Shown in pieces: positions 2,482-56,127 of a DNA stretch of 64,000 bases. How positions within the stretch are numbered: position 1 is the stretch's first letter; the number at the start of each line of letters is the position of its first letter. Both the position numbers and the translations under genes were made by a program. This DNA is from a virus, in IMG/VR virus record IMGVR_UViG_3300025030_000006; one strand, given 5' to 3'. The notes beneath the pieces are model-generated. The model worked only from the letters and a program-made list of their open reading frames with translations. It ran no database searches and was not told the origin of the DNA.

Positions 2482-2495
2482 TATATTTTCCCTCT

Positions 2496-2873
2496 TTAAT
2501 TCTGACTTATTATCAATAATTCCATTTTAACTTTTTCACGATAAGATTCATTGGTATCTAAATTCAACCAATAAATTCCATCCAATTCTTTTATAATTAC
2601 ATTGTACGTTGTTGCTGCTTCCTCACCACCTGAAGGGTCAAAAACAATCAATTCATCAGCTTGATATAATGTATTTAAAGAATTAAATTGTGCTGCTGGC
2701 ATCCAATCCCATTCCAAAGGAATAATTACTCCTGCTATAACAGGGTCCAAAGCAAAATAAGCAATGCCACCATAAGTGTCAACCGTTGAATTTCTTTTTC
2801 TTGGTTTAATTACTGGAAAACTAATTTTTGAATTATATGTAAATGTCACCCCACCTAATATCATTTTATTCAT
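2496..2873 (-). CDS. small tail component after tape measure (distal tail protein candidate)
   Basis: 125-aa ORF whose ATG overlaps the tape-measure stop (TAATG, 2871-2875). Function from synteny only. Confidence 0.5.
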   Translation of the reverse strand: MNKMILGGVTFTYNSKISFPVIKPRKRNSTVDTYGGIAYFALDPVIAGVIIPLEWDWMPAAQFNSLNTLYQADELIVFDPSGGEEAATTYNVIIKELDGIYWLNLDTNESYREKVKMELLIISQN

Positions 2874-7870: not shown

Positions 7871-7902
7871 GATATATTTCCCTCATTTATATAAATAAAA
7901 AT

Positions 7903-8221
7903 TTATCGCTTAAATCGTGATAATCTTGATTTCCAGTCAGAATCAGGTTTTACATTCTCCAAAGCATTCCCAAGGATTTTATTTCCAAATATTTTCTGAA
8001 ATTTCTTTTCCAAATCCTTAACATGCTCCTTATTACCAGAAAAGGCGGCATTCATATCGGTTATCAAAGAGATTCGTTCCCTGACTTCCTCTAATTCTGC
8101 CGCCTTTCTGATAAGTACATATTGAGAATAAGGTAATTTTTTTATATCATTCAGGCTTATCCCGCCCTTAGTTGCTTTGATAATTTGAATGTATTCCCGA
8201 ACCTGACTTATTGCTTTTTTT
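7903..8221 (-). CDS. -1 frame extension of tail assembly chaperone (GT-like fusion product spans 7903..8570)
   Basis: The -1 frame entered at A_AAA_AAG has no ATG but stays open for 104 codons (AISQVREYIQIIKATKGG...SRLSRFKR) to TAA at 7903-7905. Checked codon by codon. Ends 33 nt before the tape measure ATG. Confidence 0.8.
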
Positions 8222-8570
8222 CTTCAGGGGAATCCTCATCAATACCGGAAATACATTTATTAATCAATTTCATAACAGCAAGACTAACTTTCATCGGCCA
8301 CTGTTTAATTTCTTCGGGGGTAACTTTTTCTCCATTTTCTTTTACAATGGCAGAACTGATATATTCAAATTGGAAAGAAACATTATCTTCACTTTCTTCC
8401 GGCTTAGCCAAATCAGGGGAATCAATAGAACCGTCTTTTTTCATTGCTTTTCCCTGCTTAAACAATTCCATTGCTTTTTCATTAGTGATAGCAGGAATTA
8501 CATAAATCTGGTCTTTAAAAGTAAACTTGGTGTCATTTGCCAAATCATCAAAAGAAATCATTTCAGACAT
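8208..8570 (-). CDS. tail assembly chaperone, G-like short product
   Basis: 120-aa acidic ORF between major tail and tape measure genes. Ends ...GAA GAA AAA AAG CAA TAA, which contains a slippery heptamer. Confidence 0.8.
   Translation of the reverse strand: MSEMISFDDLANDTKFTFKDQIYVIPAITNEKAMELFKQGKAMKKDGSIDSPDLAKPEESEDNVSFQFEYISSAIVKENGEKVTPEEIKQWPMKVSLAVMKLINKCISGIDEDSPEEKKQ
8214..8220 (-). promoter_or_regulatory. programmed -1 ribosomal frameshift slippery site A_AAA_AAG
   Basis: Zero-frame codons GA[A AAA AAG] form an X_XXY_YYZ heptamer identical to the dnaX-type site, two codons before the G-like stop. Confidence 0.8.
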
Positions 8571-8611
8571 TTTCTTATCTCCTTTAGAGTTTTAAAATAA
8601 TTACTGCAAAA

Positions 8612-9307
8612 CTAATCAACCTTTTTAAATTTCCAACCCTTGTGTTGCTTTTCTTTTCCATCTAAACAATAATAAACATGAGAAGAATTAAGCCCATGCT
8701 TTTTACAAAACTCATTTACATTTTTTCCACTATATTCTTTTCCTTCAGGGGAAATAGCAATAAATGAACGAGTAGTCCTTTGGTTTTTTAATTGTTCAGT
8801 GAAAGTAATAAAAGTACAATTTTCTTTACAGTAATTTCCGTTTACATCTTTTCTTTCAATGGAAGGATTTTTTATTTTTTTAACTCTAATTGCTACCAAA
8901 TACTGAAAATACATGTCCTTTTTGAATTCTAAAAAATCATTCCATCTGGGGTCATATGTTATACCCCTACCACCGTAATTCTTATATGCTTTAAGATTTG
9001 GGTTATTACACCTTGCTTTTATATTTTGCCACATTAGATAAAACTTCATTGTTCCTTTTGAAAATTTATTATTCCAAAATCCATGCTTTACATTCTTTGT
9101 TTGTTTGTTAATTTCTTTATGGAGACAACCACAACTTTTTGTATGTCCTGATTTCAATTTACTTGTTTTTACCCTGTTTTTGTTTCCACAAGCACATCTA
9201 CACAGCCAATAACCATTTCCCAACCATTCAATTACAGTTAATCTATTAAAGTCTCTTCCAGTTAAATCTTCTAAAAATTGACTTTTTCCTCCATTTTTGC
9301 CTCTCAT
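8612..9307 (-). CDS. free-standing homing-endonuclease-like DNA-binding protein (Cys-rich N-terminal module, NUMOD/IENR-like C-terminal module)
   Basis: Motifs RLTVIEW..WLCRCACGN...SGHTKSCGC, then Y..W..IKARCNNP....YKNYGGRGI..DPRW..F..F..DM, then C-terminal GK.YSGKNVNEFCKKHGL. These are typical of phage HEG-associated DNA-binding proteins. Interrupts the tail module. Confidence 0.45.
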   Translation of the reverse strand: MRGKNGGKSQFLEDLTGRDFNRLTVIEWLGNGYWLCRCACGNKNRVKTSKLKSGHTKSCGCLHKEINKQTKNVKHGFWNNKFSKGTMKFYLMWQNIKARCNNPNLKAYKNYGGRGITYDPRWNDFLEFKKDMYFQYLVAIRVKKIKNPSIERKDVNGNYCKENCTFITFTEQLKNQRTTRSFIAISPEGKEYSGKNVNEFCKKHGLNSSHVYYCLDGKEKQHKGWKFKKVD

Positions 9308-9336
9308 TGTCTTTCTCTCCTTATCTTTTGTAGTTT

Positions 9337-9370
9337 GTATTAGGGGTAGGTTTTGCCCTACCCCTAATAC
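9337..9370 (-). terminator. 14-bp perfect hairpin after major tail gene
   Basis: GTATTAGGGGTAGG-ttttgc-CCTACCCCTAATAC, located between the major tail protein stop (9408) and the next gene start (9307). No clear U-tract on the minus strand. Confidence 0.45.
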
Positions 9371-9407
9371 TTTGTACTACAAATTAAGATAAGAAGTCAA
9401 CCCGCAA

Positions 9408-9926
9408 TTACGTAGGACTGCTATAGCCGGATATGCGGAACAATTGGTCCCCCGATACCCGGCTGTCGTCAATCAGCCCGACAAACTTACAGGCGTAAAT
9501 ACGCTGATTATCTGTGGTGAAACCAATTTCAATAGCACCACCAATGTTTGCAGCAGCTTTGTAAATCTGGAAAATATCGGTTCCATCTGTAGGTTCAATG
9601 ACCAATTCACCTGTTTCAATTGCACCACCAACAGGTTTACCAAAGGTAAGGAAAGTAGTATTATCCTCAGCCGAAGAAAAAAGCATTTTAAGGTTTTCAA
9701 AAGTGGCTTCAGTCAGATTTGCCGTAACTTCAAGAACAAGACCGGCATCAAGAATTTTTACAGGGGTTTCCCCATATTGGTCAGATTTCAATTCATAAAC
9801 ATTTTGCGTAATGGAAATAGACACACCACCATAGGTATGACCAACGTGACGCCCTTTAAAGTAAACATTCGCAGGACCAATGGAGATATTATCAGAATCA
9901 AATGCAGTGGTATATACAGTCATCAT
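9408..9926 (-). CDS. major tail (tube) protein
   Basis: 172-aa beta-rich ORF between the tail terminator candidate and the chaperone genes. Strong hairpin downstream. Function from synteny only. Confidence 0.6.
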   Translation of the reverse strand: MMTVYTTAFDSDNISIGPANVYFKGRHVGHTYGGVSISITQNVYELKSDQYGETPVKILDAGLVLEVTANLTEATFENLKMLFSSAEDNTTFLTFGKPVGGAIETGELVIEPTDGTDIFQIYKAAANIGGAIEIGFTTDNQRIYACKFVGLIDDSRVSGDQLFRISGYSSPT

Positions 9927-10054
9927 TGTTTAATTCTCCTTTTTAAATTCAATTAAATTGTTTTACGGTGAATCCCCTGTAAACTTGCTTCCCCTTATTT
10001 TTGATTATCTTTTGATAAGTTTTTTGCTAAAAGCATTTTCTTATCAAAATCAAA

Positions 10055-10492
10055 TCATCTTCTAAATACATTTGAAAACATAAAACTTACCACTTTTACC
10101 CATTGTGTATTAGGTGGTGTTCCTTCTGGAACAGAATCATTATAAGAAACCAACTCAATGTGTTTGATATGCCAGTTTGTTGTTTGTATGTTTTTAATAT
10201 CAAATAAATCAATTAGTCTTTCACCTATTTTATCTGTTGTTTCTTGGTCTATGGAAACAACCTTAAAAAACAAGGTTGAGTTGGAAAACTGGTGAGGATA
10301 AGACCATCTAGGAGGTCTTTTTCCTGTTGCTTCTTTATAAAGAATAGCACCTTTTTTACTACTTGAGTATATAATATCTTCCGATGGATTCCAAGCATAA
10401 ATTCTTTCATCATCAGAAGTATGACCAAGAAGTGTTTTAATTGTATTGTCAGCTAAAATTATATCAATGATTTCTGCATTGGTTTCTAACAT
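10055..10492 (-). CDS. tail terminator / tail completion protein candidate (DUF3168-like position)
   Basis: 145-aa ORF abutting the preceding gene (10493) and immediately before the major tail gene. Confidence 0.45.
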   Translation of the reverse strand: MLETNAEIIDIILADNTIKTLLGHTSDDERIYAWNPSEDIIYSSSKKGAILYKEATGKRPPRWSYPHQFSNSTLFFKVVSIDQETTDKIGERLIDLFDIKNIQTTNWHIKHIELVSYNDSVPEGTPPNTQWVKVVSFMFSNVFRR

Positions 10493-11242
10493 CTATTCCT
10501 CCCACCATTCTTCATCATTTCCACTTGAAGATTCCAATGCTTTTTTATTATCAAAATAGACACGAAAATAAATGGCTGTTCTTCCGCCTTTGCTTCTTGT
10601 TCTTCTTTTTAATGCTCTATTTAATCTATCTCTTATCGTTTTTCTTATTTGTGGCCTTAATTCTTCCATTATATTTCTAAACCAAGGACGTTCTTCAACT
10701 GACCATGCACCACCTGAAGCACCTGTATCTAAAGCATTTGCATATACTTCAACGGGAGTTCTGTTTCCTTCACCACCTTCTGAAACAAATATTTTTCCAC
10801 CCCTATAAAACAAAGAAGTGTATTCAGTTCCCGTTGATTTAAATACACCCACCCTTATTCTACCCGTACCATCTATTTCAAAATCAATTGAATTAAATAA
10901 TGTACCTGTGGGAACACCTAAACCACTATCAAAGGAAGCAGGAGGCTGGCCGGGAGCAGAAGCCGTATATTTTCCCAATTCAGTATATTGATTTTTTTCA
11001 CCATCACCTTCTACCAAAACAATTGTATATTCTCTTCCTACCGGTTGATTATTTAAAATATTTTCTCTTAAATGGGCAACAACAAATTCACCCACCCAAT
11101 GGGCTACATCCTCCATTTCTTTTTCTACAGAGTCAAGAATTGGATTTAAAATTCTATCAGCAATAGCAGCACCAAGTTTGCTTTTCTGTACTGCTTTGCC
11201 AATTCGTATTCTTTCTTCTGCTATATCCTTTTTAATTGTCAT
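10493..11242 (-). CDS. HK97 gp10-like neck/tail-completion protein
   Basis: 249 aa. Contains a ...GVPTGTLFNSI... (TG.L..S) motif typical of the HK97 gp10 family. ATG overlaps the upstream stop. Synteny supports the call. Confidence 0.5.
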   Translation of the reverse strand: MTIKKDIAEERIRIGKAVQKSKLGAAIADRILNPILDSVEKEMEDVAHWVGEFVVAHLRENILNNQPVGREYTIVLVEGDGEKNQYTELGKYTASAPGQPPASFDSGLGVPTGTLFNSIDFEIDGTGRIRVGVFKSTGTEYTSLFYRGGKIFVSEGGEGNRTPVEVYANALDTGASGGAWSVEERPWFRNIMEELRPQIRKTIRDRLNRALKRRTRSKGGRTAIYFRVYFDNKKALESSSGNDEEWWEE

Positions 11243-11580
11243 CAGGTTTCCTCGACAGACAATAAAACCTCTATATGATGAACCCTATTGCCAGAAGCAA
11301 ATACAGGAAAAGGAATACCTTTTACAAATAAATTAATTCCATTCCAAATAATCTTATCGCCTTTTAAAAGCACTTTATCTTTTTCAAAAAAACCAATATG
11401 GGTTCCACTTGTATTTAAACCTGTATCCTTTTGCTGATAATTGTTTGTAGAAATTCTTTCATATTGAATATTGCACTTCACCTTTGATTCAATAACATTC
11501 CACGTTTTAACAGATTGTTTCTGTGCATTCTTGGTAATTGTTACTCGTTCATGCTGGCATCTCTGATTTAATAGATTCAT
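11242..11580 (-). CDS. head closure / head-tail joining protein candidate
   Basis: 112-aa ORF coupled by 1-nt overlaps on both sides. Size and position match the head-tail joining family. Confidence 0.45.
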   Translation of the reverse strand: MNLLNQRCQHERVTITKNAQKQSVKTWNVIESKVKCNIQYERISTNNYQQKDTGLNTSGTHIGFFEKDKVLLKGDKIIWNGINLFVKGIPFPVFASGNRVHHIEVLLSVEET

Positions 11581-12245
11581 TATATTACCTCTTTCCGATA
11601 TCTTTTTAAACCAGCAAAAACAGTTGCATTTAATCCTTGTAATTCTTTTAAAGCAGAAGGAGAATAATTAGTATAAGCATAATTACCTATTCTTTCAGAA
11701 GCCAAATTTGAATTCAGGGGAGTATTCATCAAAGTTTTAACCATATCGAAACAAAGGAATTTCAGTTCTTCCATTTCTGCGTCAGTGGTTTTATAACCAC
11801 CATTCCATTTAAATTTTATATTTCTATAATAACCGGGATAGAAACCACCATAATAAATCAATTTACCCCTGCTATTATACAAATGATATCCTTCAAAATC
11901 ATCATAATCTGTTGCTTCAGTAATTACATCACCATTAAGCAAAAATGTGGTGACACTATTTACAGGGTAAGTTGGAAAATAAAAATCATTCCCATTCACA
12001 CCATCAAAAATTGCATATTTTTCAGAATAAACGGGATTAGCAATAACAACATCATCAACTATAATAGTTTCTGCATAATCAAAATCTTGTGCTTTCAAAG
12101 TTCTGTTGCAAAATCTCTCAAAGACATTGGAAACAAAATTAATAGTTCCAATTATCTTTTCAGTAGTTCCTTGTTCAAGGGAATCAATTCCCATCATATT
12201 TCTATAATATTCAATATTTATTAAAGCATTAGTTGAAAATTTCAT
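11580..12245 (-). CDS. head-tail connector (gp6-like) candidate
   Basis: 221-aa ORF, first of the neck gene run after the capsid/decoration genes. Confidence 0.4.
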   Translation of the reverse strand: MKFSTNALINIEYYRNMMGIDSLEQGTTEKIIGTINFVSNVFERFCNRTLKAQDFDYAETIIVDDVVIANPVYSEKYAIFDGVNGNDFYFPTYPVNSVTTFLLNGDVITEATDYDDFEGYHLYNSRGKLIYYGGFYPGYYRNIKFKWNGGYKTTDAEMEELKFLCFDMVKTLMNTPLNSNLASERIGNYAYTNYSPSALKELQGLNATVFAGLKRYRKEVI

Positions 12246-12254
12246 TTATACCCC

Positions 12255-12512
12255 CTACACCTTTATTTGGGGAAAAATAGGGTCATCCGGTCCCGGTACT
12301 CTTTTATTCTTATCTGTTATTTCTTTATTTTTATTTTCATCAGAAAAAACAAGAACAGTTTCATTACCAATAAACTCATGTTTTCCTAATTCTTTATTTA
12401 AAATTTTAACTTTTCCTTGTTCCTCATACCTGATAGCAAGATTTTCCTGCATGTCGATAATTGCACCACCAAATCGTCTAATCAATTCAATGTCCAGAAT
12501 TTTAACTTTCAT
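12255..12512 (-). CDS. hypothetical protein
   Basis: ORF-track ORF 12255..12581. Likely start is ATG 12512 (MKVKILD...), preceded by AGAGAGGAAAATATG. Confidence 0.6.
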   Translation of the reverse strand: MKVKILDIELIRRFGGAIIDMQENLAIRYEEQGKVKILNKELGKHEFIGNETVLVFSDENKNKEITDKNKRVPGPDDPIFPQIKV

Positions 12513-12594
12513 ATTTTCCTCTCTTTTAAGAAAAGGGGTACGGGACAAAATACCCATACCCCTTACATTATTACAATACAATTGATTTTATTTA

Positions 12595-13038
12595 TTAAGC
12601 AGTAGCTACTTTGGGTTTACGTCCAGTACCATAAGTGCCAGTGAGAACCGTACCAGCCTGAGTCACCGGACGGCGTTGTTCTTCAAAGGTAATCAAATAA
12701 GCACCCCAAGTAACCGTATTGGTATCAACATCATGCAACAGACGAAGATAACGATTTGGGTCATCCACAACCACCAGATAAAGACCAGCAGCAGTAATTT
12801 GGGGAATGGTCAGAAAGTCAGTATCATAAGTAGAATCGTCAGAAGAATCCTGAACAACAATGTCAAGAGTACCACCAGAAGCAACAGTAGTTACATCAAT
12901 CAGAATAAGAGCACGATTAGCAAGACCACCAGTAAAAAGGTCAATTTCGGTTGCTGGGGAATTGGCAGCAGCACCAGCAGTTTCATCAGCTACCGAACGA
13001 AGACGAGCAATCCTATGGTTAGACAGAATATCGTACAT
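12595..13038 (-). CDS. head decoration/accessory capsid protein candidate
   Basis: 147-aa Ala/Thr/Gly-rich ORF directly after the major capsid gene. GC is higher than neighbouring genes, as for the capsid gene. Confidence 0.4.
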   Translation of the reverse strand: MYDILSNHRIARLRSVADETAGAAANSPATEIDLFTGGLANRALILIDVTTVASGGTLDIVVQDSSDDSTYDTDFLTIPQITAAGLYLVVVDDPNRYLRLLHDVDTNTVTWGAYLITFEEQRRPVTQAGTVLTGTYGTGRKPKVATA

Positions 13039-15827: not shown

Positions 15828-17768
15828 TCAAATCTCCTTTTTAGGCTCTATTGAACAATCACAAGAAAAATTAGGAATCTGATTGGGGAACAATTGTTTC
15901 CCTTTTATATTTTCAAGTCTTCCTCTATGACCACATTCGTTTCCATTTACCTTCCAATCAAATGTAATATTTTTATTCGTCATTATCAACCATTTTGTAT
16001 AATTAACTGTTGCTCTCAAAAGAGTGTTGGTTATTTTCGCCATTCTTGGGTTTGTGTTGAATTGTTCATCAATCAATTGTTCCCAATTTTTATTATCTGA
16101 ATTGTTGTACTTGAAAATGGATTCCTTATACTCATACGCCAGTTTTTCGGAAATAGGAGATACCCAATTTTTTTCATCATAATCAATTGGTTTTACGCCT
16201 ATATGTTGAAAAAGAACCCCAATGGTTTTGCTAATAATCATGGAAAGTGCTTTGGATAAATCTTCTTTCATTGCTTCTTTATTGGTTTGTTTCAAAATAT
16301 CCAGAATCAGCTTATTCCATGTTTCCCTGAAAGAAAATTCATATTCTGAAAATTGAGTTAATTTTAAATTAATATCTGTGTTCTCAATTGTTCTTTCATC
16401 CGTTGGATTTTCGTCTCTATCATCCGTTCCATCGGGATTTAAATTAGGTTTATCGTCATCATGTCTGGTAGGGTCTGTTTCATTATCACCACCACCATTT
16501 CCAGAACCACTATTCCTTGCTTCTTCCAAAAGTAAATCAACAAAATCTTTTGCTCTACTTAATGGCACCAAGGAACCTTTTATACTAACTAAAATTTCAT
16601 CTCCACCTTCTTGCCTTGGTAAATCTAATGTTTCACTTCTAAATTCATTTATAGCCATTACTGGTTGTGCTGCCAAATAAACCCTTGCTTCTTTTACATC
16701 CAAATCCCTATCCCTTGGAATAGGGTCATGGTGTCTGATTTCTAGTTTTTCATCAAATTCATGCAAAATACCATAAGTCAGTGCTTCATCCCACAAAACC
16801 AGCCTAGACTTAATACATTCTCTATTAAATGAAATATCAGCCGTTACACTTCCTGAACGGTTAGATTCATTATCACCCCCCGCTTTGGAAATAGGAACAC
16901 CATAACAAGAAAATATTTTGGATTTACTCCATCCTGCCAAATTTAAAAATTCAAAATCCTTGTTGGTAAATTTAAGCGGTACAGGTTTCAATCCAGAAGA
17001 CAAAACGGCTATATCGTGGAATGTTCCAGTATATTTTGACTTCCATCTATTTTTAATTTCGTCTGCCTTTTCTTGGTCAATTTCTGCATCAGTATATAAA
17101 GCCATATCAATTCGTGCTGAGTTTTTAAAGAAATCTCTTTCATATACCTCAACGTAAGAATCTATATCAACTGAATAAGCCTGAGCCTGAATTGGACTCA
17201 TCGGCCAATAAACATTTTTAGGGTTGGGATATTTAATTACAATCAATTCTCTTGAATCAAACTTAATCTGCCTGTCATCAAAATTAAACGTGTAAGTTAT
17301 TTTTGGTTGTAAAAAATTATTTTCAATATCTACACTAACAAAATCATTCATGTTCAAGGGCCAAAGTTCCCAAATTTGGCCTAATTGATTTCTGGCTTTA
17401 TAAATACAAGCCATACCACACAAATCCAACTGAATCTGACAAAAGGCTTTGATAAATCTAAGCGTCATTAATTCGTTGGGTTTAAAAAATGGTTTGGTAA
17501 ATGTTTTATAGGCTTTTGATTTACTGGTAACTTCTTCATTCGTATCAGAACGATAGAAAAAATAAGGAACTGTAGAAACTCGTTTTTCAATAAGAGATAC
17601 ACAAGAAAATACCCATGATTTATATTCAGATAATTGTGCCTGTGTGCTTCCTTTTAAATTTTCAATGGAAGCACCTTTTTCCCTATTAATTATCTGAACT
17701 AAATCAGAATAACTTTTTCCAATGTCAAGTTTGAATGGTCCAATTCGCAAGGTGTCCTCCCTATACAT
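15828..17768 (-). CDS. portal protein with C-terminal Mu F/SPP1 gp7-like minor head domain
   Basis: 646 aa. The portal-like N-terminal ~430 aa are followed by a G/D-rich linker (SGSGNGGGDNETDP...). The C-terminal domain ends W..NGNECGHRG....P.FSCDCSIEP, like the Mu F C-terminal W..C...P.H.NCRC..P. Confidence 0.75.
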   Translation of the reverse strand: MYREDTLRIGPFKLDIGKSYSDLVQIINREKGASIENLKGSTQAQLSEYKSWVFSCVSLIEKRVSTVPYFFYRSDTNEEVTSKSKAYKTFTKPFFKPNELMTLRFIKAFCQIQLDLCGMACIYKARNQLGQIWELWPLNMNDFVSVDIENNFLQPKITYTFNFDDRQIKFDSRELIVIKYPNPKNVYWPMSPIQAQAYSVDIDSYVEVYERDFFKNSARIDMALYTDAEIDQEKADEIKNRWKSKYTGTFHDIAVLSSGLKPVPLKFTNKDFEFLNLAGWSKSKIFSCYGVPISKAGGDNESNRSGSVTADISFNRECIKSRLVLWDEALTYGILHEFDEKLEIRHHDPIPRDRDLDVKEARVYLAAQPVMAINEFRSETLDLPRQEGGDEILVSIKGSLVPLSRAKDFVDLLLEEARNSGSGNGGGDNETDPTRHDDDKPNLNPDGTDDRDENPTDERTIENTDINLKLTQFSEYEFSFRETWNKLILDILKQTNKEAMKEDLSKALSMIISKTIGVLFQHIGVKPIDYDEKNWVSPISEKLAYEYKESIFKYNNSDNKNWEQLIDEQFNTNPRMAKITNTLLRATVNYTKWLIMTNKNITFDWKVNGNECGHRGRLENIKGKQLFPNQIPNFSCDCSIEPKKEI

Positions 17769-17891
17769 GAATAAACTCTGCTAATACGATTAAATTGTAA
17801 AACCATACTAGCAGAGTCTTTAATAAAATACTAATCTTTTCGTTATATTATTGTTTTCATTATTTATAATACTTTTATTTCATTTTAAACT

Positions 17892-20800
17892 CCCCCCCCC
17901 ACTCCTTGAGGTCTCGGTGGCGGATGTAGAGGATGTACGGCTTTACCCCATTACTGCACCAGATAGGTGTAGGTGTAGAACATGGTAACTCCACCGGCGG
18001 TGTTGCTGTTCCATTTCAGCGTGGCCCGGTCATTGGTTGCATCCGCCGAAATCCCTGCACCCAAACCTGAAACCGACTGATTGAATGCTGTACCAGCGCA
18101 TTGTTCCTCTGTCGTTAGTGCACTAGCTATAGGCAGAGATATCCCCAGCGTTGTAGTCGTGGTCGAGGTTACGGTCATGTCCACTTTGCCAGAGACGGTA
18201 ACGGTATTACCTACCCGCATGTACTGAGCCGTGTAGGGAGTTGAGACGCTGATGTTGCCTACGTTGGTCAAGGTCGGGGTGTACGTGCCGGAGGTCGGTG
18301 AACCGGAAGGTAGCACCGAAGCATCAAATTTCCCGCTGCTGTCCAACTTCGCCAGCTTCCCGCTATCGCCGGCGCCAGCTGAGGTGGTAACGGCGGCCGC
18401 CACGGTGTCAGAGGCGCTTTTGATATTGGCGGCATCGGCACAGGCATTATTTTCGTCACAAATACCCTTAGTGTTGGCAAATTGGATATGGTCGTTATAC
18501 TCTACGTTTCCGTTGTTGGCGGCTGTGGAGTTACTGACGGCCCCTTGCAGGTCGGCGGTGCCGCCAACGGTGAGGTTGCCAGAAAAATCACCAATCGCCT
18601 TCCACCCGGTGTTGCCGGTGCCGGTGACCTTGATGTAAAGGACCGTGCTGGAGTCTGTCGGGTTCATTCGAAGGTACATTGACCCCACGGTAGCCGCAGC
18701 AGCACCTTCGGGGGAGTTCAGGCCGACAAACACCGATACGTAGGATTGCATATTATTCTGGCCATACAGCCGCATCGGTCCACGATATTCCAGCGCATCC
18801 TGATATAACCCGATCAGGTCAAAGGCCGCACCTGTCGAGGCGTAACACCATTTCACACCGTCCGCGCCGGTAACGCAGGCACTGGAATGGGTCGGTTCAC
18901 TCCCGGTCGCCGTTGTCCCGGCGGCGTTGCCACAAACATACACCCGGCCACCGTTTGCCCGGATACTCCCCCACTGGACACTCTGCCCATTGGCCCACGC
19001 CGTTGCGGTTCTGGACAAGGCCCGGGATACGGATGTGAGCAGGCCCCCAGCAGGGTCGATACTCCATGTACCCAGGTTGAATTTTCCATCGGCCCCCATC
19101 GCCGGATATTGGTTCGCTCCCGTACCAATATTGCTCTCCAGCATGTAGCCGGCGTGAGGGTCGGATGCTGCATTGTGCGCAGTCACGGCGGCACTCCCTG
19201 TGTCGCTGTTGGTTACCTGCTGACCTGCCAGAGATATCCCTGTACCAGCGGTTACCGGGTCGTGCAGCTTGGTATGGTCATGGGTGGATTCGTGCCCCGC
19301 GACAGCCCCTGCTTCCTCGAATGTTCCACGACTGCCGTCAGCCAGGGCATATTGCACATGATCATCATCGCCGAGACCTGTCAGTGAGCCGTGGTCAGTC
19401 GCTCCGGCCCCGGTCGGGCCGCCGCCAAGATGCTGGGTAATGGTGCCGTTGACGAATGTAAAAACCGCTCCGCCGTAGGGCGGGATAACCACGTCCGCGC
19501 CAGTCATCGTGCGCAGGACAGAAGAGTTGTTGGTCAGGGTAATTGAATAGGTCCCGCTCCCATTCCGCAGCACAAAGAGCGGAATCTTATTATCACCGCT
19601 CTTGCGGGCAAACCCGGTGATTGTCGCTCCCGCCCCGGTCGGTGTGTAGACTACCGCTGGAGCATTGACAGTCACCACGCCAGCCGATGGAGTGACTGCG
19701 GTCCAGCCCTCGAACTCAACCCCCGGCAGAATGGTTGACCCGCTCGTGTCCTGATAGGTGGCCACATACCCGGAGACGATGGCCCCGCCATTATCGAGGT
19801 CCGTGGCGTTAATCTGTCCCGTGGTGTTAGGTGCCACGTTGTCCTTGATCCGGATGCCGGTTTTAAGAGAAGCGCCCCGCTGCGAGAGGTTGACCAGCAT
19901 CCCCGCCCCCTCGTAGTAGTTGGTTTCGACGATGATGTTTTTGAGCGGGATCCCGGTTGATTCCGACACCTGAACACCGTGCCTGCTGGCCGCCGAAGCT
20001 GTAGAGACAGAAGGCGGGGTAAACATCTGATTCCCTCGTACAGCAATATCGGTTGCCGTCCCGTTGGCCGAGCTACCTAACTGGACACCGAAGCGCGAAG
20101 GATCGATCATCAGGTTATTCGCGACTAGTACCCGCTCCCCGGCAACGTCAGGGCCGACAACGGAGCCGGCCACACGAATTTGCGCCGATTCGGTATTGAG
20201 ATGGACCTTTCGCACTGACTCCTGGATAAACGTCTCGGTTGGCGCAGAGGAAAGGGTGATTGTCGTCCCGGCGATGTTGGTAATTTTGGAGACGAAGTAT
20301 TGCCCGAACGAGGTCTTGGACTCCACGATGACAAAATCATTGATAGCCAACCCTGTTACATCAGCCACAGTCAGGGTCGTGGACCCGGTGATGATTGAGC
20401 CGGTAGTGGAAATTTCAGAATCTGCGGTCCATCCAGAGCGGACCAGAGTGTTGTTTGCGATCAACCCGTTCCTGCCACCGTCCGCCGCCGTGATGTTGGA
20501 CGAATACCCCCCGACCACGGTATTGCCGGTGACAGTGAACTGAGACACGCCGGTTGCTGGGGCGGCATACCAGGTCGCCGGTGTGTTTTGCAGGCTCACA
20601 GGGGTTGCCGTCACACAGATGGCGGTCGCGGCGGTGCCGGATGCAATGCTTATAACCTTGAACGTCGCCTCGTCGCTGCCCGAGGTGAGCGTTATCAAAT
20701 TGTCAAGAAAGCTACTCGAAAAGGTCGTAGCCAAGGCCGTCAGGGTCACGGTGTCTCCGGCATTATAGGTTGATCCGGTCGCCGTTGCCGTGCCGGAGAG

Positions 20801-21695
20801 GGCGAGATTGAATCCCGCCACCCATATCCCGTTTGACTCGCAGTCTTTGAACAGGCTCCCGGTCACGGCGACGATCCTGCAACCGCGAGAAATAGATACC
20901 CCGTTATCGCTGCCGAACTCGGTGATGTTGTGAGCCCAAGTGACCTTATTGCAGAATCGAAAGCCGGGGTCGCGGGTCTTGTAGAAAATAGAGTTATCCA
21001 CTTGCACATTGTTGAAATGGTCGATCAGAAACGGAAGGTTGGGCATGTCCTTGAACCGGCAATCCGAGATGCGGAAGCGCGAATCAGGGTCGCCGGGTTG
21101 TGCTACCGCCTGAATCGCCGTCAGCATCCCGTAACTGTCCGTGGCAAACGACATATATGGGAACGTCCCGCGCACACGCTCCCCGTCGAACGTCACCCCC
21201 GAAACATCGATTGTTTTGGCAAAGGTCGCCCCTGGATAAGCGTTGGCAGTCACGAAGGCGGTCACACCATGTGCGGCACGGATAATGACGCTATCCCGGG
21301 ATGCTCCTCGCAGGATCAGCTTGCCATTGCCGGGGATAACCACCGATGATGCCAAATAATAGATGCCAGGCGGCAGGTTAATGGTCGCCCCAGCCGACAC
21401 GAGGGCCTGAAATGCCGATGTATCATCTGTGCCCCCATCTCCCACGGCCCCCGCCGTTTTAACGGACACGCCAAGCGGATCGAACCTCCCGTCATCCCCC
21501 GCCGCCACCGTCCCTTCCGTAATCCCGATATCGAGACCGGCGGAGTTGCCAAGTGTAGATTCCCGCGCGTAGCCGGTATGCGGGTCGGCTTCCCCGGCAT
21601 GGGTAGAAATCGCCCCAGGAACGGTGGGGTCGGATTCAAGCGCGGCAAGCTCACTTTCCTTAATGATCGTTGCGTCGGCGGGTTCTTTTCCGTCC
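17892..21695 (-). other. GC-rich compositional island (~3.8 kb) embedded in AT-rich genome
   Basis: Hand count of line 18961-19020 gives 38/60 G+C, versus 24/60 at 22261-22320 and lower elsewhere. Edges lie at a C9 tract (17892-17900, 51 nt past the stop) and near 21690 inside the ORF. Many spurious long ORFs occur in other frames. Confidence 0.85.
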
Positions 21696-22435
21696 AATGA
21701 ATCTTTTACAAGTTTCTCACTTGGATAATGTACATCATCCGGTGTTATCTGAAAAGTAGTTCTTTTGTTAGAAACATCTTCAGGGGTAAAGCCCAAAGCA
21801 GCTTGTTTTGCGCTCCACGTTGATTTCTCTGTATCAGTTACAAATCTATTATTTGCATCTTGTGTGATTATACTCGGAGCGTGGTTTGCTGGATGAGTGT
21901 AATTATTTGCATTTTCTTCAATTGCAAATAATTTTGTTTTTTCTGCGTCTGTAAAAACATTAGTATCTGCATTTAATTCATAAAGTGTTTTTATTTCAGA
22001 AGATGATAATTGTTGAATTGTTATTTCTTTCCATATTGCATTATTTACTGTGGCATCAACACATTCCCAAACAATTTTGCTTGTAGTATTCACCCATTTG
22101 GAACCAATAGAATAACCAATGGAGGAATCAGCCGTAACAGGTGGATTTATAATTGCCGTCAAATTTACTTTTATATTCTCCACATAACTCAAACCAACTT
22201 GAGTTTTAGTAACTGTATGCGGGTTACTTATATTTCCTGTATGGTTTGTTAAATCAGTTACAGAAGGAACCACCAAAAGTGTTCTAGCACCAGAAGGGTT
22301 AGTTTCTGGATTAAGATTAAAACCACCTTTTGAAGTATCCAAATAATTATTTCCATCAGAATCCAATTCAATCGAATAAGAGACTGATGCTATGAATAAC
22401 AGAAAAATTAATATACTGGTAAGTTTTTTTACCAT
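17951..22435 (-). CDS. secreted/tailspike-like right-handed beta-helix protein (pectate-lyase-3-type depolymerase domain), chimeric composition
   Basis: 1494 aa. N-terminal signal-peptide-like MVKKLTSILIFLLFIASVSYS. Fibre-stalk motifs FTDAEKTKL / FVTDTEKSTW. VKTAGAVGDGGTDDTSAFQALVSAG plus a long G/T/S/A/V-rich region typical of tailspike beta-helices. Only the first ~250 codons are AT-rich. Confidence 0.75.
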   Translation of the reverse strand: MVKKLTSILIFLLFIASVSYSIELDSDGNNYLDTSKGGFNLNPETNPSGARTLLVVPSVTDLTNHTGNISNPHTVTKTQVGLSYVENIKVNLTAIINPPVTADSSIGYSIGSKWVNTTSKIVWECVDATVNNAIWKEITIQQLSSSEIKTLYELNADTNVFTDAEKTKLFAIEENANNYTHPANHAPSIITQDANNRFVTDTEKSTWSAKQAALGFTPEDVSNKRTTFQITPDDVHYPSEKLVKDSLDGKEPADATIIKESELAALESDPTVPGAISTHAGEADPHTGYARESTLGNSAGLDIGITEGTVAAGDDGRFDPLGVSVKTAGAVGDGGTDDTSAFQALVSAGATINLPPGIYYLASSVVIPGNGKLILRGASRDSVIIRAAHGVTAFVTANAYPGATFAKTIDVSGVTFDGERVRGTFPYMSFATDSYGMLTAIQAVAQPGDPDSRFRISDCRFKDMPNLPFLIDHFNNVQVDNSIFYKTRDPGFRFCNKVTWAHNITEFGSDNGVSISRGCRIVAVTGSLFKDCESNGIWVAGFNLALSGTATATGSTYNAGDTVTLTALATTFSSSFLDNLITLTSGSDEATFKVISIASGTAATAICVTATPVSLQNTPATWYAAPATGVSQFTVTGNTVVGGYSSNITAADGGRNGLIANNTLVRSGWTADSEISTTGSIITGSTTLTVADVTGLAINDFVIVESKTSFGQYFVSKITNIAGTTITLSSAPTETFIQESVRKVHLNTESAQIRVAGSVVGPDVAGERVLVANNLMIDPSRFGVQLGSSANGTATDIAVRGNQMFTPPSVSTASAASRHGVQVSESTGIPLKNIIVETNYYEGAGMLVNLSQRGASLKTGIRIKDNVAPNTTGQINATDLDNGGAIVSGYVATYQDTSGSTILPGVEFEGWTAVTPSAGVVTVNAPAVVYTPTGAGATITGFARKSGDNKIPLFVLRNGSGTYSITLTNNSSVLRTMTGADVVIPPYGGAVFTFVNGTITQHLGGGPTGAGATDHGSLTGLGDDDHVQYALADGSRGTFEEAGAVAGHESTHDHTKLHDPVTAGTGISLAGQQVTNSDTGSAAVTAHNAASDPHAGYMLESNIGTGANQYPAMGADGKFNLGTWSIDPAGGLLTSVSRALSRTATAWANGQSVQWGSIRANGGRVYVCGNAAGTTATGSEPTHSSACVTGADGVKWCYASTGAAFDLIGLYQDALEYRGPMRLYGQNNMQSYVSVFVGLNSPEGAAAATVGSMYLRMNPTDSSTVLYIKVTGTGNTGWKAIGDFSGNLTVGGTADLQGAVSNSTAANNGNVEYNDHIQFANTKGICDENNACADAANIKSASDTVAAAVTTSAGAGDSGKLAKLDSSGKFDASVLPSGSPTSGTYTPTLTNVGNISVSTPYTAQYMRVGNTVTVSGKVDMTVTSTTTTTLGISLPIASALTTEEQCAGTAFNQSVSGLGAGISADATNDRATLKWNSNTAGGVTMFYTYTYLVQ

Positions 22436-22449
22436 TTATTGTTTCCTCC

Positions 22450-22668
22450 CTACCAAGTTACAGGTTGACCATTAAAAGTTACAGGTTGTCCCTGCCAAGT
22501 CACTTCATCTCCTTCAGGTACTTCCTCATCAGGAATAAAATAAGGTAAATAAACCATTCCCAATGAATCGGGAGGCCACATAACAGAACCCAATGAATCA
22601 GGAGGCCACATAACAGAACCCAATGAATCAGGAGGCCAACTAACCACTTTATTTATTAAACCACCCAC
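22450..22668 (-). CDS. small repeat protein (3x WPPDSLG[SM]V[MY])
   Basis: 72-aa ORF containing the 30-bp tandem repeat. C-terminal half also repeats internally (VTWQGQPVTFNGQPVTW). Confidence 0.5.
   Translation of the reverse strand: MGGLINKVVSWPPDSLGSVMWPPDSLGSVMWPPDSLGMVYLPYFIPDEEVPEGDEVTWQGQPVTFNGQPVTW
22558..22645. repeat. 30-bp tandem repeat, ~3 copies
   Basis: cccaatgaatc(g/a)ggaggccacataacagaa repeated head to tail. The third copy diverges at its end. Confidence 0.9.
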
Positions 22669-22997
22669 AACGGACCACCATTATCAAATGTAAAAGAACC
22701 ATTAAAAAATCTATAATGTTTTACTGTTCCCGGTTTACACAAAACATTATATTTCAATCCATCAGTATAATTTTCCAAAGCGGTAAGAATATCAGCAATA
22801 TCTTTTTCCAAAATTATTTTTTTATTTGTGATATCCTTTGTAACAGTCAAAATCAATAATACTGTGGTTGGGGCATCTTCATGATAGATATAAGCCACAA
22901 AGGACCAAGAGGTAATATCTTGCGTAGTATTTAATGTTAATGGAGCATATAAACTACCATCATCTGCTGTTTCTATATCAACTCTTGCACCAATCAT
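22656..22997 (-). CDS. hypothetical protein
   Basis: 113-aa ORF just downstream of terL, overlapping the next ORF by 13 nt. Confidence 0.6.
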   Translation of the reverse strand: MIGARVDIETADDGSLYAPLTLNTTQDITSWSFVAYIYHEDAPTTVLLILTVTKDITNKKIILEKDIADILTALENYTDGLKYNVLCKPGTVKHYRFFNGSFTFDNGGPLWVV

Positions 22998-23030
22998 AAT
23001 TTTCTCCTGAATAATTTCATTTTAATATAC

Positions 23031-25613
23031 CTAAAAGCAATTTGGCCCTGAATCAATACCCCTAATCAATTTCTTTGCCGCTTCTCTACAGAAATATAAA
23101 CTCATTGCAATGTCAGAAGTTTCATGAAAAGGATGATTTAGCATTTCATAATACATTCTTGACCATGGCTTTTGTTCCATATCATCAGCTATATCAGGTT
23201 TTTCATTAAAACAAAACATCCATTCTTTATTTTCAAACTCCTTATCCATAGAAGGAAGACCTGTATTAATATCCATCTTACCTCTACCTGTCAGAAAACC
23301 ATCAATCTTAATATTATACTTTTTAAATTTTTCATCCCCCATGGCAGCTTTTAACAAATCAATAATGGCTTCCTGAACACCGTTATTTTCTGCAAAATAT
23401 AATTCAACACCATATTCTCTATATGTTCTGATTATATGCCCCGTTAAATCTGAGGACTTCCTTATCGTAACAATTTCAATCGGTAATTTCAATCCAGTTT
23501 TTCTATGCACAGCAACTATGGATAAAACCGTACCGGGACGTTTGGAGCCAGCAAAGTCAATACCACCAACAAATATCCAGTTTGATTCAAATTCAATTAC
23601 TGCTCTTGGAGAAACACTAAAATGACAACATTTTTCAAAATGTCCAAAGGTTTTATCACTATCAGAATAAGGTATTAAGCAATAACCTCTTTTAAAATCT
23701 CTTTCCCCAAGGGTTATTTTTCTATCCTCTAATGCTGCTTTATTAAATTTCGACCAAAGGGGAATTTTAAAATTTCTACCAAAGGAATCCTTTACAATAA
23801 GGTGTTCCATTGTTTTTTCATCAGCAGCAATGCTTATCCATGCCCATGCTGGATTTCTTTGAACGTAAGATGCTATATCTGAATCATGCCATTTGTTGAT
23901 TAATATAATGGCTTCTGAATCATCAGGTATTAATCGAGTTATCCATACCGACTTAATTGTATCTTCAATTTTAACTCTGGTTGTTGGCTCATAAACTGCT
24001 GTTCTCAAATCTTGTGGGTCATCAAAAATAATTAAATTTGCACGACCACCAATACCTGTACCCAAAACAGAATGGGATTCAACGGTACAGTTTGCAGCGG
24101 GGGAATCTCTTTTAACAATGAATTTTTCAGAACCCCAAATATTTGTTGGTGTAATATGTGGTGCAATTGATTTAAAATCTTCATCCCCCTCTATATAATC
24201 CCGAATTGAACGGCATCTATGTGTTGCCTCTGTATCAGAAACGTGAACTAATTTTATAAGTATGTTTGGATTTTTTGCTATTCTGTATAAGGAGTAACCA
24301 ATACAAATCTGCTGTGTGTTATGAACCACTGTAAAGTCTTCAAGTAAAAACAGCTTGTTACCATCAAGAACAACACCAAAAAATTCCTTTTTCCCCAGCG
24401 GTTCTACATCAAAACCAAAAACCAATGGGTTTTTGTTTATTTTTCTTTCCTCAACAGCTTTTCTAGTTTTACATGGTATTAAGTGTGTATCACCACTAAC
24501 AACTACAACATAATAAGGTACACCATTAACATATTTTGTTCTATGAGATAATCTAAAACCGAGAGAACGACAAAGGAAAAGAAAATCATTTCTCAAATCA
24601 ATATATTTTGTAGACCATTCAAAACATTTAGCAAAGCTATAACCATCAGTATCAAGCATTCCCGCTAAAAGTTCTAATCTGTTTTCCCTTGAGTTTATTA
24701 AATAGTTTTTTGGTATTCTTTTTCCTTTCTTGCTTATTTTCATGATAAATGTTTTTTGAATGTACTTTTTACAATTACTCCTTCCTTTATTTAAACCATA
24801 CCTAGTGCAATCTCCCTTTTGGTCATCCACCCTTATTTTGAATTTATGCTTTTCTGCCCAATCAAAAAGATAATCAGCAATTTCCTCATCTTGGTTATTT
24901 ATAGTAAATTCAAGATTATTTGAATGCCCATCACCTAACCAAACACCAAAAAAATAAGGCTCTAATAAAGTGTTACTTTCTTTAAATTCCAATTTTGATT
25001 TATATAACTTAAAACAATTTTTCTTAGCATATTCTGGAAAAGTCAACCATTCTTTAAAATTTAAATTTACAATATCTCCTTTATTGTACTTTGAGTATTT
25101 TTTTGTTTTGTATTTATTTGAAATTTTAAAGGACATAATATGAGACTCATTACATACAAAAGAATCACCATTTTTGAGTGTAATTTTATACATCTCTTCT
25201 TTGCCACTACCCAAATTTAAAACTCTTCTTGGTGTTCCATCATCACCCATCAACAAATCACCAATCTTAATATCTTCAATATTTTTTACAGAACAATCAT
25301 GCAAAAGTACCTTGGTTCCTTTGCCAAAGCACTTGCCTAATCCGAACCCGCCTAAAATCATATATTTATTAAAGCCTTTTCTCCTTGCTATTCTCATAAA
25401 CCTATGCATTATATTATGTACTGGTTCATTCACAACTAAATCACCTTTTGTGTCTTTCAATACTTTCTGAACAAAATCTTCTGATTTCTTTGGAATCAAA
25501 GCATCTGTTGGTAAATCTATTCCTGAAAGTAAATCAGACATTCCACCCTTTAGAAATGTCTTAGTATCCTTACCCAACAATGATGCAGAAGTATTAACAA
25601 ATTTCTTTTTCAT
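23031..25613 (-). CDS. terL: terminase large subunit, intein-containing precursor (860 aa)
   Basis: Walker A GGFGLGK|T is split by the intein. Walker B LIIFDDPQ. Nuclease-domain motif FVGGIDFAGSK. Preceded by the small terminase gene. Confidence 0.9.
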   Translation of the reverse strand: MKKKFVNTSASLLGKDTKTFLKGGMSDLLSGIDLPTDALIPKKSEDFVQKVLKDTKGDLVVNEPVHNIMHRFMRIARRKGFNKYMILGGFGLGKCFGKGTKVLLHDCSVKNIEDIKIGDLLMGDDGTPRRVLNLGSGKEEMYKITLKNGDSFVCNESHIMSFKISNKYKTKKYSKYNKGDIVNLNFKEWLTFPEYAKKNCFKLYKSKLEFKESNTLLEPYFFGVWLGDGHSNNLEFTINNQDEEIADYLFDWAEKHKFKIRVDDQKGDCTRYGLNKGRSNCKKYIQKTFIMKISKKGKRIPKNYLINSRENRLELLAGMLDTDGYSFAKCFEWSTKYIDLRNDFLFLCRSLGFRLSHRTKYVNGVPYYVVVVSGDTHLIPCKTRKAVEERKINKNPLVFGFDVEPLGKKEFFGVVLDGNKLFLLEDFTVVHNTQQICIGYSLYRIAKNPNILIKLVHVSDTEATHRCRSIRDYIEGDEDFKSIAPHITPTNIWGSEKFIVKRDSPAANCTVESHSVLGTGIGGRANLIIFDDPQDLRTAVYEPTTRVKIEDTIKSVWITRLIPDDSEAIILINKWHDSDIASYVQRNPAWAWISIAADEKTMEHLIVKDSFGRNFKIPLWSKFNKAALEDRKITLGERDFKRGYCLIPYSDSDKTFGHFEKCCHFSVSPRAVIEFESNWIFVGGIDFAGSKRPGTVLSIVAVHRKTGLKLPIEIVTIRKSSDLTGHIIRTYREYGVELYFAENNGVQEAIIDLLKAAMGDEKFKKYNIKIDGFLTGRGKMDINTGLPSMDKEFENKEWMFCFNEKPDIADDMEQKPWSRMYYEMLNHPFHETSDIAMSLYFCREAAKKLIRGIDSGPNCF
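24318..25331 (-). mobile_element. intein (338 aa) with LAGLIDADG homing endonuclease domain in TerL P-loop
   Basis: Starts Cys95 (TGC 25329-25331), CFGKGTKVLL. LAGLIDADG blocks FFGVWLGDGHS and LLAGMLDTDGY. Ends ...FTVVHN (AAC 24318-24320) followed by Thr+1. Excision restores GGFGLGK-TQQ. Confidence 0.85.
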
Positions 25614-56035: not shown

Positions 56036-56127
56036 GGGGTAGTGGCGAAGCTGGTTGAAACGCAACGGTCTTAAAAACCGTTACTGATAAGTTCACACCG
56101 TCGGTTCGATTCCGACCTACCCCACCA
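56036..56127 (+). tRNA. tRNA-Leu (anticodon UAA), class II with long variable arm, CCA encoded
   Basis: Acceptor GGGGTAG/CTACCCC. Anticodon stem ACGGT/ACCGT with loop CUUAAAA. T-arm GTCGG-TTCGATT-CCGAC. 18-nt variable region. Discriminator A followed by CCA. Confidence 0.85.

Follow-up and report, generated by a model that had tools for sequence, protein, structure and literature searches.

A GC-rich 3.8-kb block fused in frame to an AT-rich phage gene: a probable mosaic adhesion fibre in a terL-portal accessory slot

How does one intact gene of an AT-rich phage come to consist of two parts with opposite codon preferences, and what might the product of such a gene do? The question is raised by a 1494-amino-acid (aa) open reading frame (ORF) on the minus strand of IMG/VR virus record IMGVR_UViG_3300025030_000006, analysed as a stretch of 64,000 nucleotides (nt; hereafter the window), which is a siphovirus-like phage genome, uncultured, from Rifle groundwater. 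An initial annotation, made from the DNA letters alone, had described an abrupt compositional switch within this ORF and had offered two explanations, a receptor-binding or depolymerase module captured recently from a high-GC donor, or a secreted depolymerase that is not part of the virion. We consider it reasonably probable that the gene encodes a mosaic adhesion fibre, that a foreign 3.8-kb block is fused in frame within it, and that it occupies an accessory slot of the genome. The features on which the first part of the argument turns are the following (position in the window, strand, description):

17951-22435, minus strand: the 1494-aa mosaic ORF, fibre- or tailspike-like, intact, with the switch in guanine plus cytosine (G+C) content inside it
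22373-22435, minus strand: signal-peptide-like N-terminus, codons 1-21 (KK, a 14-residue hydrophobic core, SYS then IE), from a heuristic test
21686-22372, minus strand: N-terminal AT-rich part (aa 22-250), which carries NPHxV and 'phage tail repeat'-type motifs and ends in …TTFQITPDDVHYPSEKLVKDSLDGK
17890-21683, minus strand: GC-rich, apparently foreign block of about 3.79 kb, made up of codons 251-1494, the stop codon and a 58-nt 3' tail reaching a C9/G9 tract, delimited by change points, G+C and G+C at third codon positions (GC3)
17892-17900, no strand assigned: C9 tract (G9 on the coding strand), 58 nt past the stop codon, at the 3' edge of the foreign block

The compositional switch is sharp at both edges of the block. 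Scanned in sliding windows of 300 nt, the sequence goes from a G+C of about 0.30 up to 0.53-0.63 in the stretch from about 17.9 to 21.7 kb and returns to the lower level within one or two windows on each side; the 35 windows inside the block have a mean of 0.579 and a minimum of 0.53, as against a mean of 0.314 (standard deviation (sd) 0.041, maximum 0.44) for the 596 windows outside it, and there is no other such stretch in the 64 kb. Change points placed by likelihood fall at 17890 and 21683, with the switch complete within about 30 nt on either side, and they separate a block of 58% G+C (17890-21683) from a phage of 31% G+C. The division runs through the reading frame itself, since GC3 is 0.19 for codons 1-245 (0.185 for the AT-rich N-terminal part) and 0.66 for the remaining codons of the same ORF; the neighboring portal, protease, terL and orf113 genes have values of 0.20-0.25. 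Codon preference is inverted between the GC-rich part and AT-rich sequence, for example in the use of CTG for Leu (0.46 versus 0.10), AGA for Arg (0.03 versus 0.56) and GGT for Gly (0.17 versus 0.59). Because GC3 and synonymous choice shift together with total G+C, the change is not an amino-acid effect. In addition, GC3 lies between 0.60 and 0.68 in all five GC-rich sub-modules described below, so the block came as one piece or at least from one compositional class. The details reported in the initial annotation were all correct on checking: a recount gave 38 G+C in the 60 nt of 18961-19020, the C9 tract is present at 17892-17900, eight spurious ORFs of 91-166 aa lie in other frames or on the other strand within the block, and the frame is preserved across the junction in a single intact ORF of 1494 aa.

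A change of composition as abrupt as this one is also a typical warning sign of a chimeric assembly, in which a GC-rich fragment of another genome has been mis-joined into the phage contig, and a JGI product (P0123) that is a fragment starting near aa 823-826 indicates at least one assembly break inside the block. Such an artefact would have needed two mis-joins, one leaving and one re-entering the same phage between terL and portal, that moreover kept 1494 codons open and ended 58 nt past the stop codon. Instead, nine contigs carry exactly this 1494-aa protein, and seven of these have a length of 50-200 kb. Three loci, namely a 98.5-kb MEGAHIT contig in ENA (SRR1658465) and one Logan contig from each of SRR1658465 and SRR1658462, agree with the window at 100% identity over stretches of 24.5, 12.8 and 7.4 kb that take in both junctions. 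The Logan contigs end in a 30-nt tandem repeat upstream of the gene and not at the junctions. The initial annotation had named a lack of reads across the junctions as the mark of a chimera; contigs from two runs and two assemblers pass through both junctions without a difference. A chimera is thus largely refuted, on contig evidence short of read-level inspection; we regard it as excluded and give it a negligible probability.

The second line of evidence is the position of the gene. The initial annotation had noted that it lies between terL and portal rather than in the tail module, and this placement was borne out, the tail module being at 1-12600. The order on the minus strand is a small terminase candidate, terL, orf113, orf72, the 1494-aa gene, portal, prohead protease and major capsid, followed by adaptor, neck and tube genes, an HNH endonuclease, a tape-measure gene of 1665 aa, a 125-aa ORF and an ORF of at least 833 aa. 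The features needed here are:

23031-25613, minus strand: terL, adjoining the slot on its upstream side
17769-23030, minus strand: terL-portal interval of 5262 nt, an accessory slot by locus comparison
22656-22997, minus strand: orf113, within the inserted interval
22450-22668, minus strand: orf72, with a 30-nt tandem repeat, within the inserted interval
17775-17817, minus strand: native hairpin with U-run (17-nt arms in a repeat search, 19 bp in an RNA fold), upstream of the portal ribosome-binding site
15828-17768, minus strand: portal, downstream of the slot
2873-7870, minus strand: tape-measure gene, 1665 aa, followed by a 125-aa ORF that matches no family
1-2499, minus strand: AT-rich ORF, at least 833 aa long and cut off by the start of the window, with a BNR/Asp-box-like motif (SKSIDNGATWG)

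A portal-based scan of IMG/VR yielded 48 related loci, with portal identities of 44-75% and a G+C content of 28-42%. In 45 of these loci, the terL stop and the portal start are separated by a median of 32 nt and never by more than 627 nt (24-41 nt in the majority), as compared with 5262 nt in the window. The 48 loci yielded no homologue for any of orf113, the AT-rich N-terminal part and the GC-rich part, and none of them contains a 500-nt window above 0.50 G+C. What little the slot holds elsewhere varies: it is empty in L008 (38 nt), is filled in L005 and L006 by a 127-aa ORF (9537-9920) with a signal-peptide start and glycine-rich hydrophobic segments, and in L007 by a 194-aa homing endonuclease of the HNH_3 plus AP2 type (9429-10013). 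The slot ORF of L006 matched nothing in NCBIfam or PADLOC. The length of the gap and the variable contents in relatives indicate that the terL-portal junction is a variable accessory slot and, by comparison of the loci, that the entire 5.26-kb interval is a lineage-specific insertion. Likewise, because the 48 relatives lack the 1494-aa gene and because tail-tip genes of the phage's own lie downstream of the tape-measure gene, where the AT-rich ORF of at least 833 aa is probably a native tail-tip or receptor-binding protein, sequence comparison places the gene among accessory and not core genes. In the initial annotation, an AT-rich gene had received the GC-rich block; the fusion stands, but the N-terminal part is not resident in the lineage, the whole interval being an insertion.

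The two small genes of the interval offer few clues. No relative of orf113 was found in IMG/VR, neither orf113 nor orf72 matched NCBIfam or PADLOC, and orf72 matched no family. The 30-nt tandem repeat of orf72 has 2.7 copies with 98% matches and encodes the peptide WPPDSLGSVM three times, and a 21-nt repeat (VTWQGQP/VTFNGQP) is also present; the two repeats lie at 22559-22638 and 22447-22500. Promoter-like sites across 17600-23200 were at background, no notable terminator-like site was found at the junctions, and Rfam gave no match in 17000-23500.

Where did the block come from? Genes homologous to its modules differ from their own flanks by no more than a few points of G+C, both for the beta-helix (L001 and L053-L078, with flanks of 36-71% G+C) and for the head domain (L080-L085), so that among loci with homologues the window is the only one in which the G+C of the homologue departs from that of its surroundings. 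At 22 beta-helix homologue loci, segment GC3 and flank G+C are correlated with r=0.95, and on this calibration the GC3 of 0.683 in the window corresponds to a donor genome of about 58% G+C. G+C at first and second codon positions (GC12) gives about 64%, and the observed GC3 is within 1 sd of the value of 0.77 expected from GC12. Together these figures would imply a donor genome of about 58-64% G+C and little amelioration, with no detectable decay of GC3. The modules belong to families of phage tail proteins, and wherever a carrier of the head domain has a name, which is the case for a few, it is a phage or prophage of a high-GC proteobacterium (Stenotrophomonas, Sphingobium, Rhodobacter, Burkholderia and Pseudomonas); for these reasons, the donor was probably itself a phage or prophage. 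The transfer is called recent because synonymous sites still look like those of the donor and because the block is absent from all relatives. This bears out the recent capture from a high-GC donor put forward in the initial annotation, which had added that the same segment carried throughout the lineage would argue for an older event; the 48 related loci lack it.

An old acquisition, or a mere compositional effect of a Gly/Ala/Thr-rich protein, would remove the need for a recent foreign source. Gly and Ala each make up about 12% of the GC-rich part and raise G+C at first and second codon positions, and a GC3 of 0.68 is somewhat below the expected 0.77. Yet neither version accounts for GC3 values of 0.66 and 0.19 within one ORF, for boundaries sharp to about 30 nt, or for the absence of the block from all 48 relatives, even those with portals 74-75% identical. 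Moreover, a beta-helix homologue in a genome of 36% G+C has a GC3 of 0.22, and the family therefore has no intrinsic need for G+C. We consider this explanation very improbable.

The donor sequence itself was not recovered from the collections searched. A DNA search of the block and its flanks against 50,697 phage records gave no match, nor did a tblastn search of phages with the beta-helix module; a single-protein scan of IMG/VR with the GC-rich part returned only repeat-motif matches, and no beta-helix relative above 40% identity was found in any collection searched.

The joins are informative in their own right. The 5' change point falls at codon 251, with …HYPSEKLVKDSLDGK on the AT-rich side and EPADATIIKESELAALESDPTVPG… on the GC-rich side. 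When the N-terminal part was used as a query, a block of the form TTFQ(I/V)TPDD(V/T)HYPSEKLVKDSL(D/N)(G/L)K recurred in P0094, P0102, P0059 and P0045, proteins of unrelated lengths that each continue with a different sequence after the final K. Because these four proteins diverge right after the shared block, the join in the window sits exactly on a recurrent module boundary, after …SEKLVKDSLDGK (…LDGK), and such a boundary would explain how a functional frame resulted from an illegitimate join between DNA of 31% and 58% G+C. No nucleotide homology is likely to have guided the join. On the 3' side, the G9 tract is followed by a short AT-rich stretch that has no counterpart in L005/L006 and then by intergenic sequence that can be aligned to these loci. 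The hairpin before portal is kept in L005/L006 with different stem sequences and is probably a terminator or a processing site. Apart from this native hairpin, neither an integrase or invertase signature nor meaningful flanking direct or inverted repeats or an invertible segment were found. For the portal gene just beyond, a TTG start (…RIGPFKLDIG) is likelier than the ATG upstream of it.

The homing endonuclease in the slot of L007 and the intein endonuclease in the adjacent terL suggest, but do not show, that double-strand breaks at the slot promote the capture of cargo; neither element flanks the block. The terL intein (about aa 95-432, with Hint and homing endonuclease domains, Pfam PF05203/PF05204) is absent from most of the 48 relatives, whose terL aligns as aa 1-97 plus 433-860. 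It is carried by L035, L036 and L048 and partly by L008, and L052 has a different insertion further downstream. Additional insertions in or just after terL were seen in L052 (7877-9081, about 1.2 kb), L011 (7628-8277, 0.63 kb) and L045 (2938-3252, 0.27 kb), and the pattern suggests that the region of the terL 3' end is generally prone to insertion.

Taken together, we envisage that accessory genes were taken up between terL and portal of a siphovirus-type phage of about 31% G+C, and that the last of these was built or rebuilt from two pieces, the AT-rich aa 1-250 and one contiguous 3.8-kb block, the latter acquired from a phage or prophage within a genome of about 58-64% G+C. The in-frame join would have been made right after the conserved block …YPSEKLVKDSLDGK, and the foreign DNA would run through the stop codon of the donor and a further 58 nt to the G9 tract, beyond which come the AT-rich stretch, the phage's own hairpin and the portal ribosome-binding site. 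The resulting gene is intact, has a strong ribosome-binding site, lies inside the late structural gene string and ends before the native hairpin. Its product would be a long, probably trimeric adhesion fibre, in which, as in phi29 gp12 or a tailspike, a beta-helix attaches to a surface polysaccharide and probably cleaves it, and a C-terminal head binds a receptor.

The functional part of this proposal depends on the modules encoded by the block, which are as follows:

21473-21685, minus strand: first GC-rich segment, aa 251-321, with a DPHTGY fibre repeat
19421-21472, minus strand: predicted right-handed beta-helix (pectate-lyase-like), aa 322-1005, from Pfam, homologues and PDB profile matches
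19136-19420, minus strand: fibre repeats, aa 1006-1100 (TDHGxLTGLGDDDHxQY and DPHAGY)
18299-19135, minus strand: middle region, aa 1101-1379, of low confidence in AlphaFold2 (AF2) models and without a Pfam match, with partial homologues such as P0175
17954-18298, minus strand: predicted beta-sandwich head of the receptor-binding type, aa 1380-1494, from AF2, Foldseek, BFVD and sequence relatives

A first protein search with the GC-rich part was swamped by low-complexity words and gave only two matches, so that an exhaustive HMMER search was needed (query aa 295-1494, 1.84 billion representatives). The pectate-lyase-3 or tailspike-type beta-helix proposed in the initial annotation is well founded: PF12708 matched aa 323-537 with 42.7 bits (cut-off 27) and PF13229 (Beta_helix) scored 28.8 bits (cut-off 25.9), both matches falling within aa 323-541, where VKTAGAVGDGGTDDTSAFQALVSAG begins at aa 325. 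About 30 homologues of 28-40% identity were found at E<1e-30 (for example P0001, 38% identical over 712 residues), a number that points to a rare family given the 1.84 billion representatives. The N-terminal region is different in each of these homologues, and none has a counterpart of aa 251-321. A single-sequence search of the PDB matched only chains of the phi29 gp12 pre-neck appendage; a profile search placed a beta-1,3-glucanase first and phi29 gp12 next, followed lower down by mannuronan epimerases, pectin lyase, and the tailspikes of Sf6 and other phages. In an AF2 model of aa 249-1100 from a three-sequence alignment, only aa 319-508 reach a predicted local distance difference test score (pLDDT) of 70-89, with a regular strand pattern. 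An alignment of 16 sequences (A1) has invariant columns at D96, D168, D189, D351 and E353 of the module, which are candidates only for catalytic residues. The repeated DPH.GY/DH.QY motifs remarked on earlier were located at aa 284, 1024 and 1092 in the forms DPHxGY and DDDHxQY; repeats of the TDHGxLTGLGDDDHxQY type are common to proteins with up to 16 copies. Lenient Pfam searches of sub-regions gave nothing credible, and the 1494-aa protein as a whole matched nothing in NCBIfam or PADLOC.

The C-terminal 115 residues are predicted to have the fold of an attachment head and are thus a putative receptor-binding domain. In an AF2 model from a 60-sequence alignment, aa 1380-1494 have a pLDDT of about 97 and the remainder of the model is poor. 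PDB matches 1-50 in Foldseek were all viral attachment heads (E about 1e-3, probability about 1.0), among them reovirus sigma1, Listeria phage PSA gp15, the receptor-binding proteins (RBPs) of lactococcal phages p2 and TP901-1, and adenovirus fibre. BFVD gave phage fibre tips with a root-mean-square deviation of 0.9-1.1 A over 115-117 residues; also among its matches are a Pseudomonas tail fibre and proteins of Burkholderia phage Bcep22 ('pectin lyase-like protein') and Rhodobacter phage RcapNL. The head has thousands of sequence relatives, at most 63% identical over 115 aa and always C-terminal, and tblastn found it in a 'minor tail protein' of a Stenotrophomonas phage. The description of the product as tailspike-like consequently holds for the beta-helix and not for the protein as a whole, which ends in a receptor-binding head and is better seen as a composite fibre than as a plain tailspike.

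The N-terminus is harder to reconcile with a fibre. The ORF begins MVKKLTSILIFLLFIASVSYS at an ATG behind a GGGAGGA ribosome-binding site, and its first residues, MVKK, LTSILIFLLFIASV and SYS followed by IE, have the n-h-c layout of a type I Sec signal peptide with small residues at -3/-1, by a heuristic test. Codons 1-21 are also the segment of highest hydropathy in the protein. The classical signal peptide of the initial annotation is thereby supported, and the sequence looks like a genuine, if putative, signal for export and cleavage. A signal-peptide-like start occurs in two of 81 putative genes in the window; the other gene (39168-39740, minus strand, 190 aa) starts MRILISCLVITLLSFGICFAEK. 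Descent of the signal peptide from the 127-aa slot ORF of L005/L006 was considered and rejected, there being no convincing DNA homology. The adjoining aa 22-250 have only motif-level likeness to widespread fibre repeats (NPHxV, …NNYTHPANHAPSIITQDANNRFVTDTEKSTW…).

It is therefore necessary to weigh a reading in which the gene encodes a Sec-exported, non-virion protein, that is, a secreted or envelope-anchored polysaccharide depolymerase or adhesin of the moron type. Possible roles would be stripping of capsule or biofilm round the infected cell, destruction of receptors, or exclusion of other phages. The canonical n-h-c N-terminus directly behind a strong ribosome-binding site speaks for it, as does the scarcity of such starts among the genes of the window, and no aligned fibre homologue has one. 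Furthermore, the ORF in the L005/L006 slot starts in the same manner, and the gene is dispensable for the lineage and outside the tail module. However, all other recognisable modules of the protein, from the fibre repeats and the tailspike-type beta-helix to the receptor-binding head, have their known counterparts in tail proteins of virions, and the gene belongs to the late structural operon, with which it shares the native hairpin that precedes portal. We regard export as possible but doubtful.

The composition of the block might also be explained by the host rather than by a distant donor. In this scenario, the AT-rich phage is virulent, its host has about 60% G+C, and the module was looted from one of the resident prophages of that host, so that the block reports the composition of the host. 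The window carries a family-A DNA polymerase of its own (in the form of a uracil-DNA glycosylase (UDG)/exonuclease ORF and a polymerase ORF), no integrase was seen in it, and its tRNA-Leu(UAA) serves a codon that makes up 32% of the Leu codons of the phage. The high-GC proteobacterial origin of every named phage or prophage with the head domain would also fit, and a wide difference in G+C between phage and host is documented for some virulent phages, phiKZ among them. On the other hand, there are no close isolate relatives to indicate such a host: portal, capsid and polymerase are 22-31% identical to their nearest isolates, which are spread over many phyla. The portal found one relative in 185,579 GTDB species genomes, a 27.6-kb contig of 33% G+C (L079, JAHWGK010000034.1) binned as a Thermoplasmata archaeon metagenome-assembled genome, which may be either a mis-binned viral contig or a hint at the host. 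In addition, all 48 relatives have 28-42% G+C and lack other GC-rich acquisitions. We entertain looting from a resident prophage only tentatively.

Several observations weigh against the mosaic fibre that we prefer. A cleavable Sec-like N-terminus is unexpected in a protein assembled onto virions in the cytoplasm, and the N-terminal part has no homologue in the 48 relatives that could show how it would dock on the particle; an anchor shared with these phages, or a place in the tail module, would have favored a virion fibre, and neither was found. Enzymatic activity is putative, and the AF2 model of the beta-helix is poor (mean pLDDT 42). The donor was not found, the best beta-helix homologue being 38-40% identical and the best head 63% identical over 115 aa, and 'recent' is meant relative to mutational amelioration and gives no absolute date. 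Finally, SRR1658465 and SRR1658462 are from one project and contain the same genotype, so that the contig-level comparison across them is not fully independent.

Mosaic receptor-binding proteins drive changes in phage host range; in the modular exchange known for tail fibres and tailspikes, an N-terminal anchor is retained and the C-terminal specificity module is swapped. The present case is one of this known process, in which receptor-binding or depolymerase modules are exchanged at linker boundaries, here into a moron-like slot, and it is a real, recent and extreme example. As in other exchanges between tail fibres or tailspikes, a conserved linker connects a separate N-terminal part with a foreign block for C-terminal specificity, each homologue of the beta-helix has an N-terminus of its own, and the junction is at a recurrent boundary. 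Unlike in those exchanges, the two parts differ by 27 points in G+C and 47 points in GC3 within one ORF, the N-terminal part is not common to relatives, and the gene is in the head-gene region. To our knowledge, documented exchanges are normally between phages of similar composition.

The closest solved structure is that of phi29 gp12, the pre-neck appendage of a Bacillus phage (PDB 3gq7, 3suc and 6qz9), which shares a pectate-lyase-type right-handed beta-helix; the match covers aa 320-419 (E about 3e-7, or about 2e-11 with the profile). The alignment extends over only about 100 residues, however; the autocleaving C-terminal chaperone of gp12 is without evidence here, and the protein of the window instead ends in a receptor-binding head and has long fibre repeats. 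Likewise, the predicted fold of the C-terminal 115 aa resembles the heads of the p2, TP901-1, PSA gp15, reovirus sigma1 and adenovirus fibre proteins, but the likeness is at the level of fold only, with 12-23% identity, E about 1e-3 and a template modelling (TM) score of about 0.5. The slot recalls the accessory slots that hold phage morons, as a gene block lies between genes that are adjacent in almost all relatives and unrelated cargo is found in L005/L006 and L007. It differs from them in that its cargo is a 4.5-kb structural-type gene and in that the promoter scan stayed at background. Literature searches found no description of this case. What is unusual is the size of the G+C gap with little amelioration, the position between terL and portal, the occurrence together of a beta-helix, a head and a signal peptide, and the rarity of the beta-helix family.

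An in-frame fusion that shows almost no amelioration, that joins sequences differing by about 27 points of G+C and whose two breakpoints are each placed to about 30 nt, one of them on a recurrent module boundary, amounts to a natural experiment on how great a distance between donor and recipient is tolerated, where functional joins work, and whether cargo generally enters by way of the junction between terL and portal. A functional signal peptide would point to a non-virion use of a fibre-type protein; if it is not functional, the locus would be a clean but conceptually familiar capture of a module. In its most far-reaching form, the proposal would be that the block is a working host-recognition module from the phage of a distant high-GC host that confers a second adsorption specificity, or else that a virulent, AT-rich lineage exploits a host of about 60% G+C, possibly with the fibre being exported by Sec. 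We judge this version unlikely. If true, it would mean adsorption across a very large host distance or predation by an AT-rich lineage on such a host, and deployment of a Sec-exported fibre would be unprecedented by comparison with a virion part assembled in the cytoplasm.

Elsewhere in the window, the HNH endonuclease gene (8612-9307, minus strand) is free-standing within the string of head-tail and tail genes and matches phrog_374 (E=3e-53). The plus strand carries replication genes that include the family-A DNA polymerase. This enzyme is split between a UDG-like plus 3'-5' exonuclease ORF and a separate polymerase-domain ORF (56802-58466 and 59287-60699, plus strand), and a single tRNA-Leu(UAA) is encoded at 56036-56127 (plus strand).

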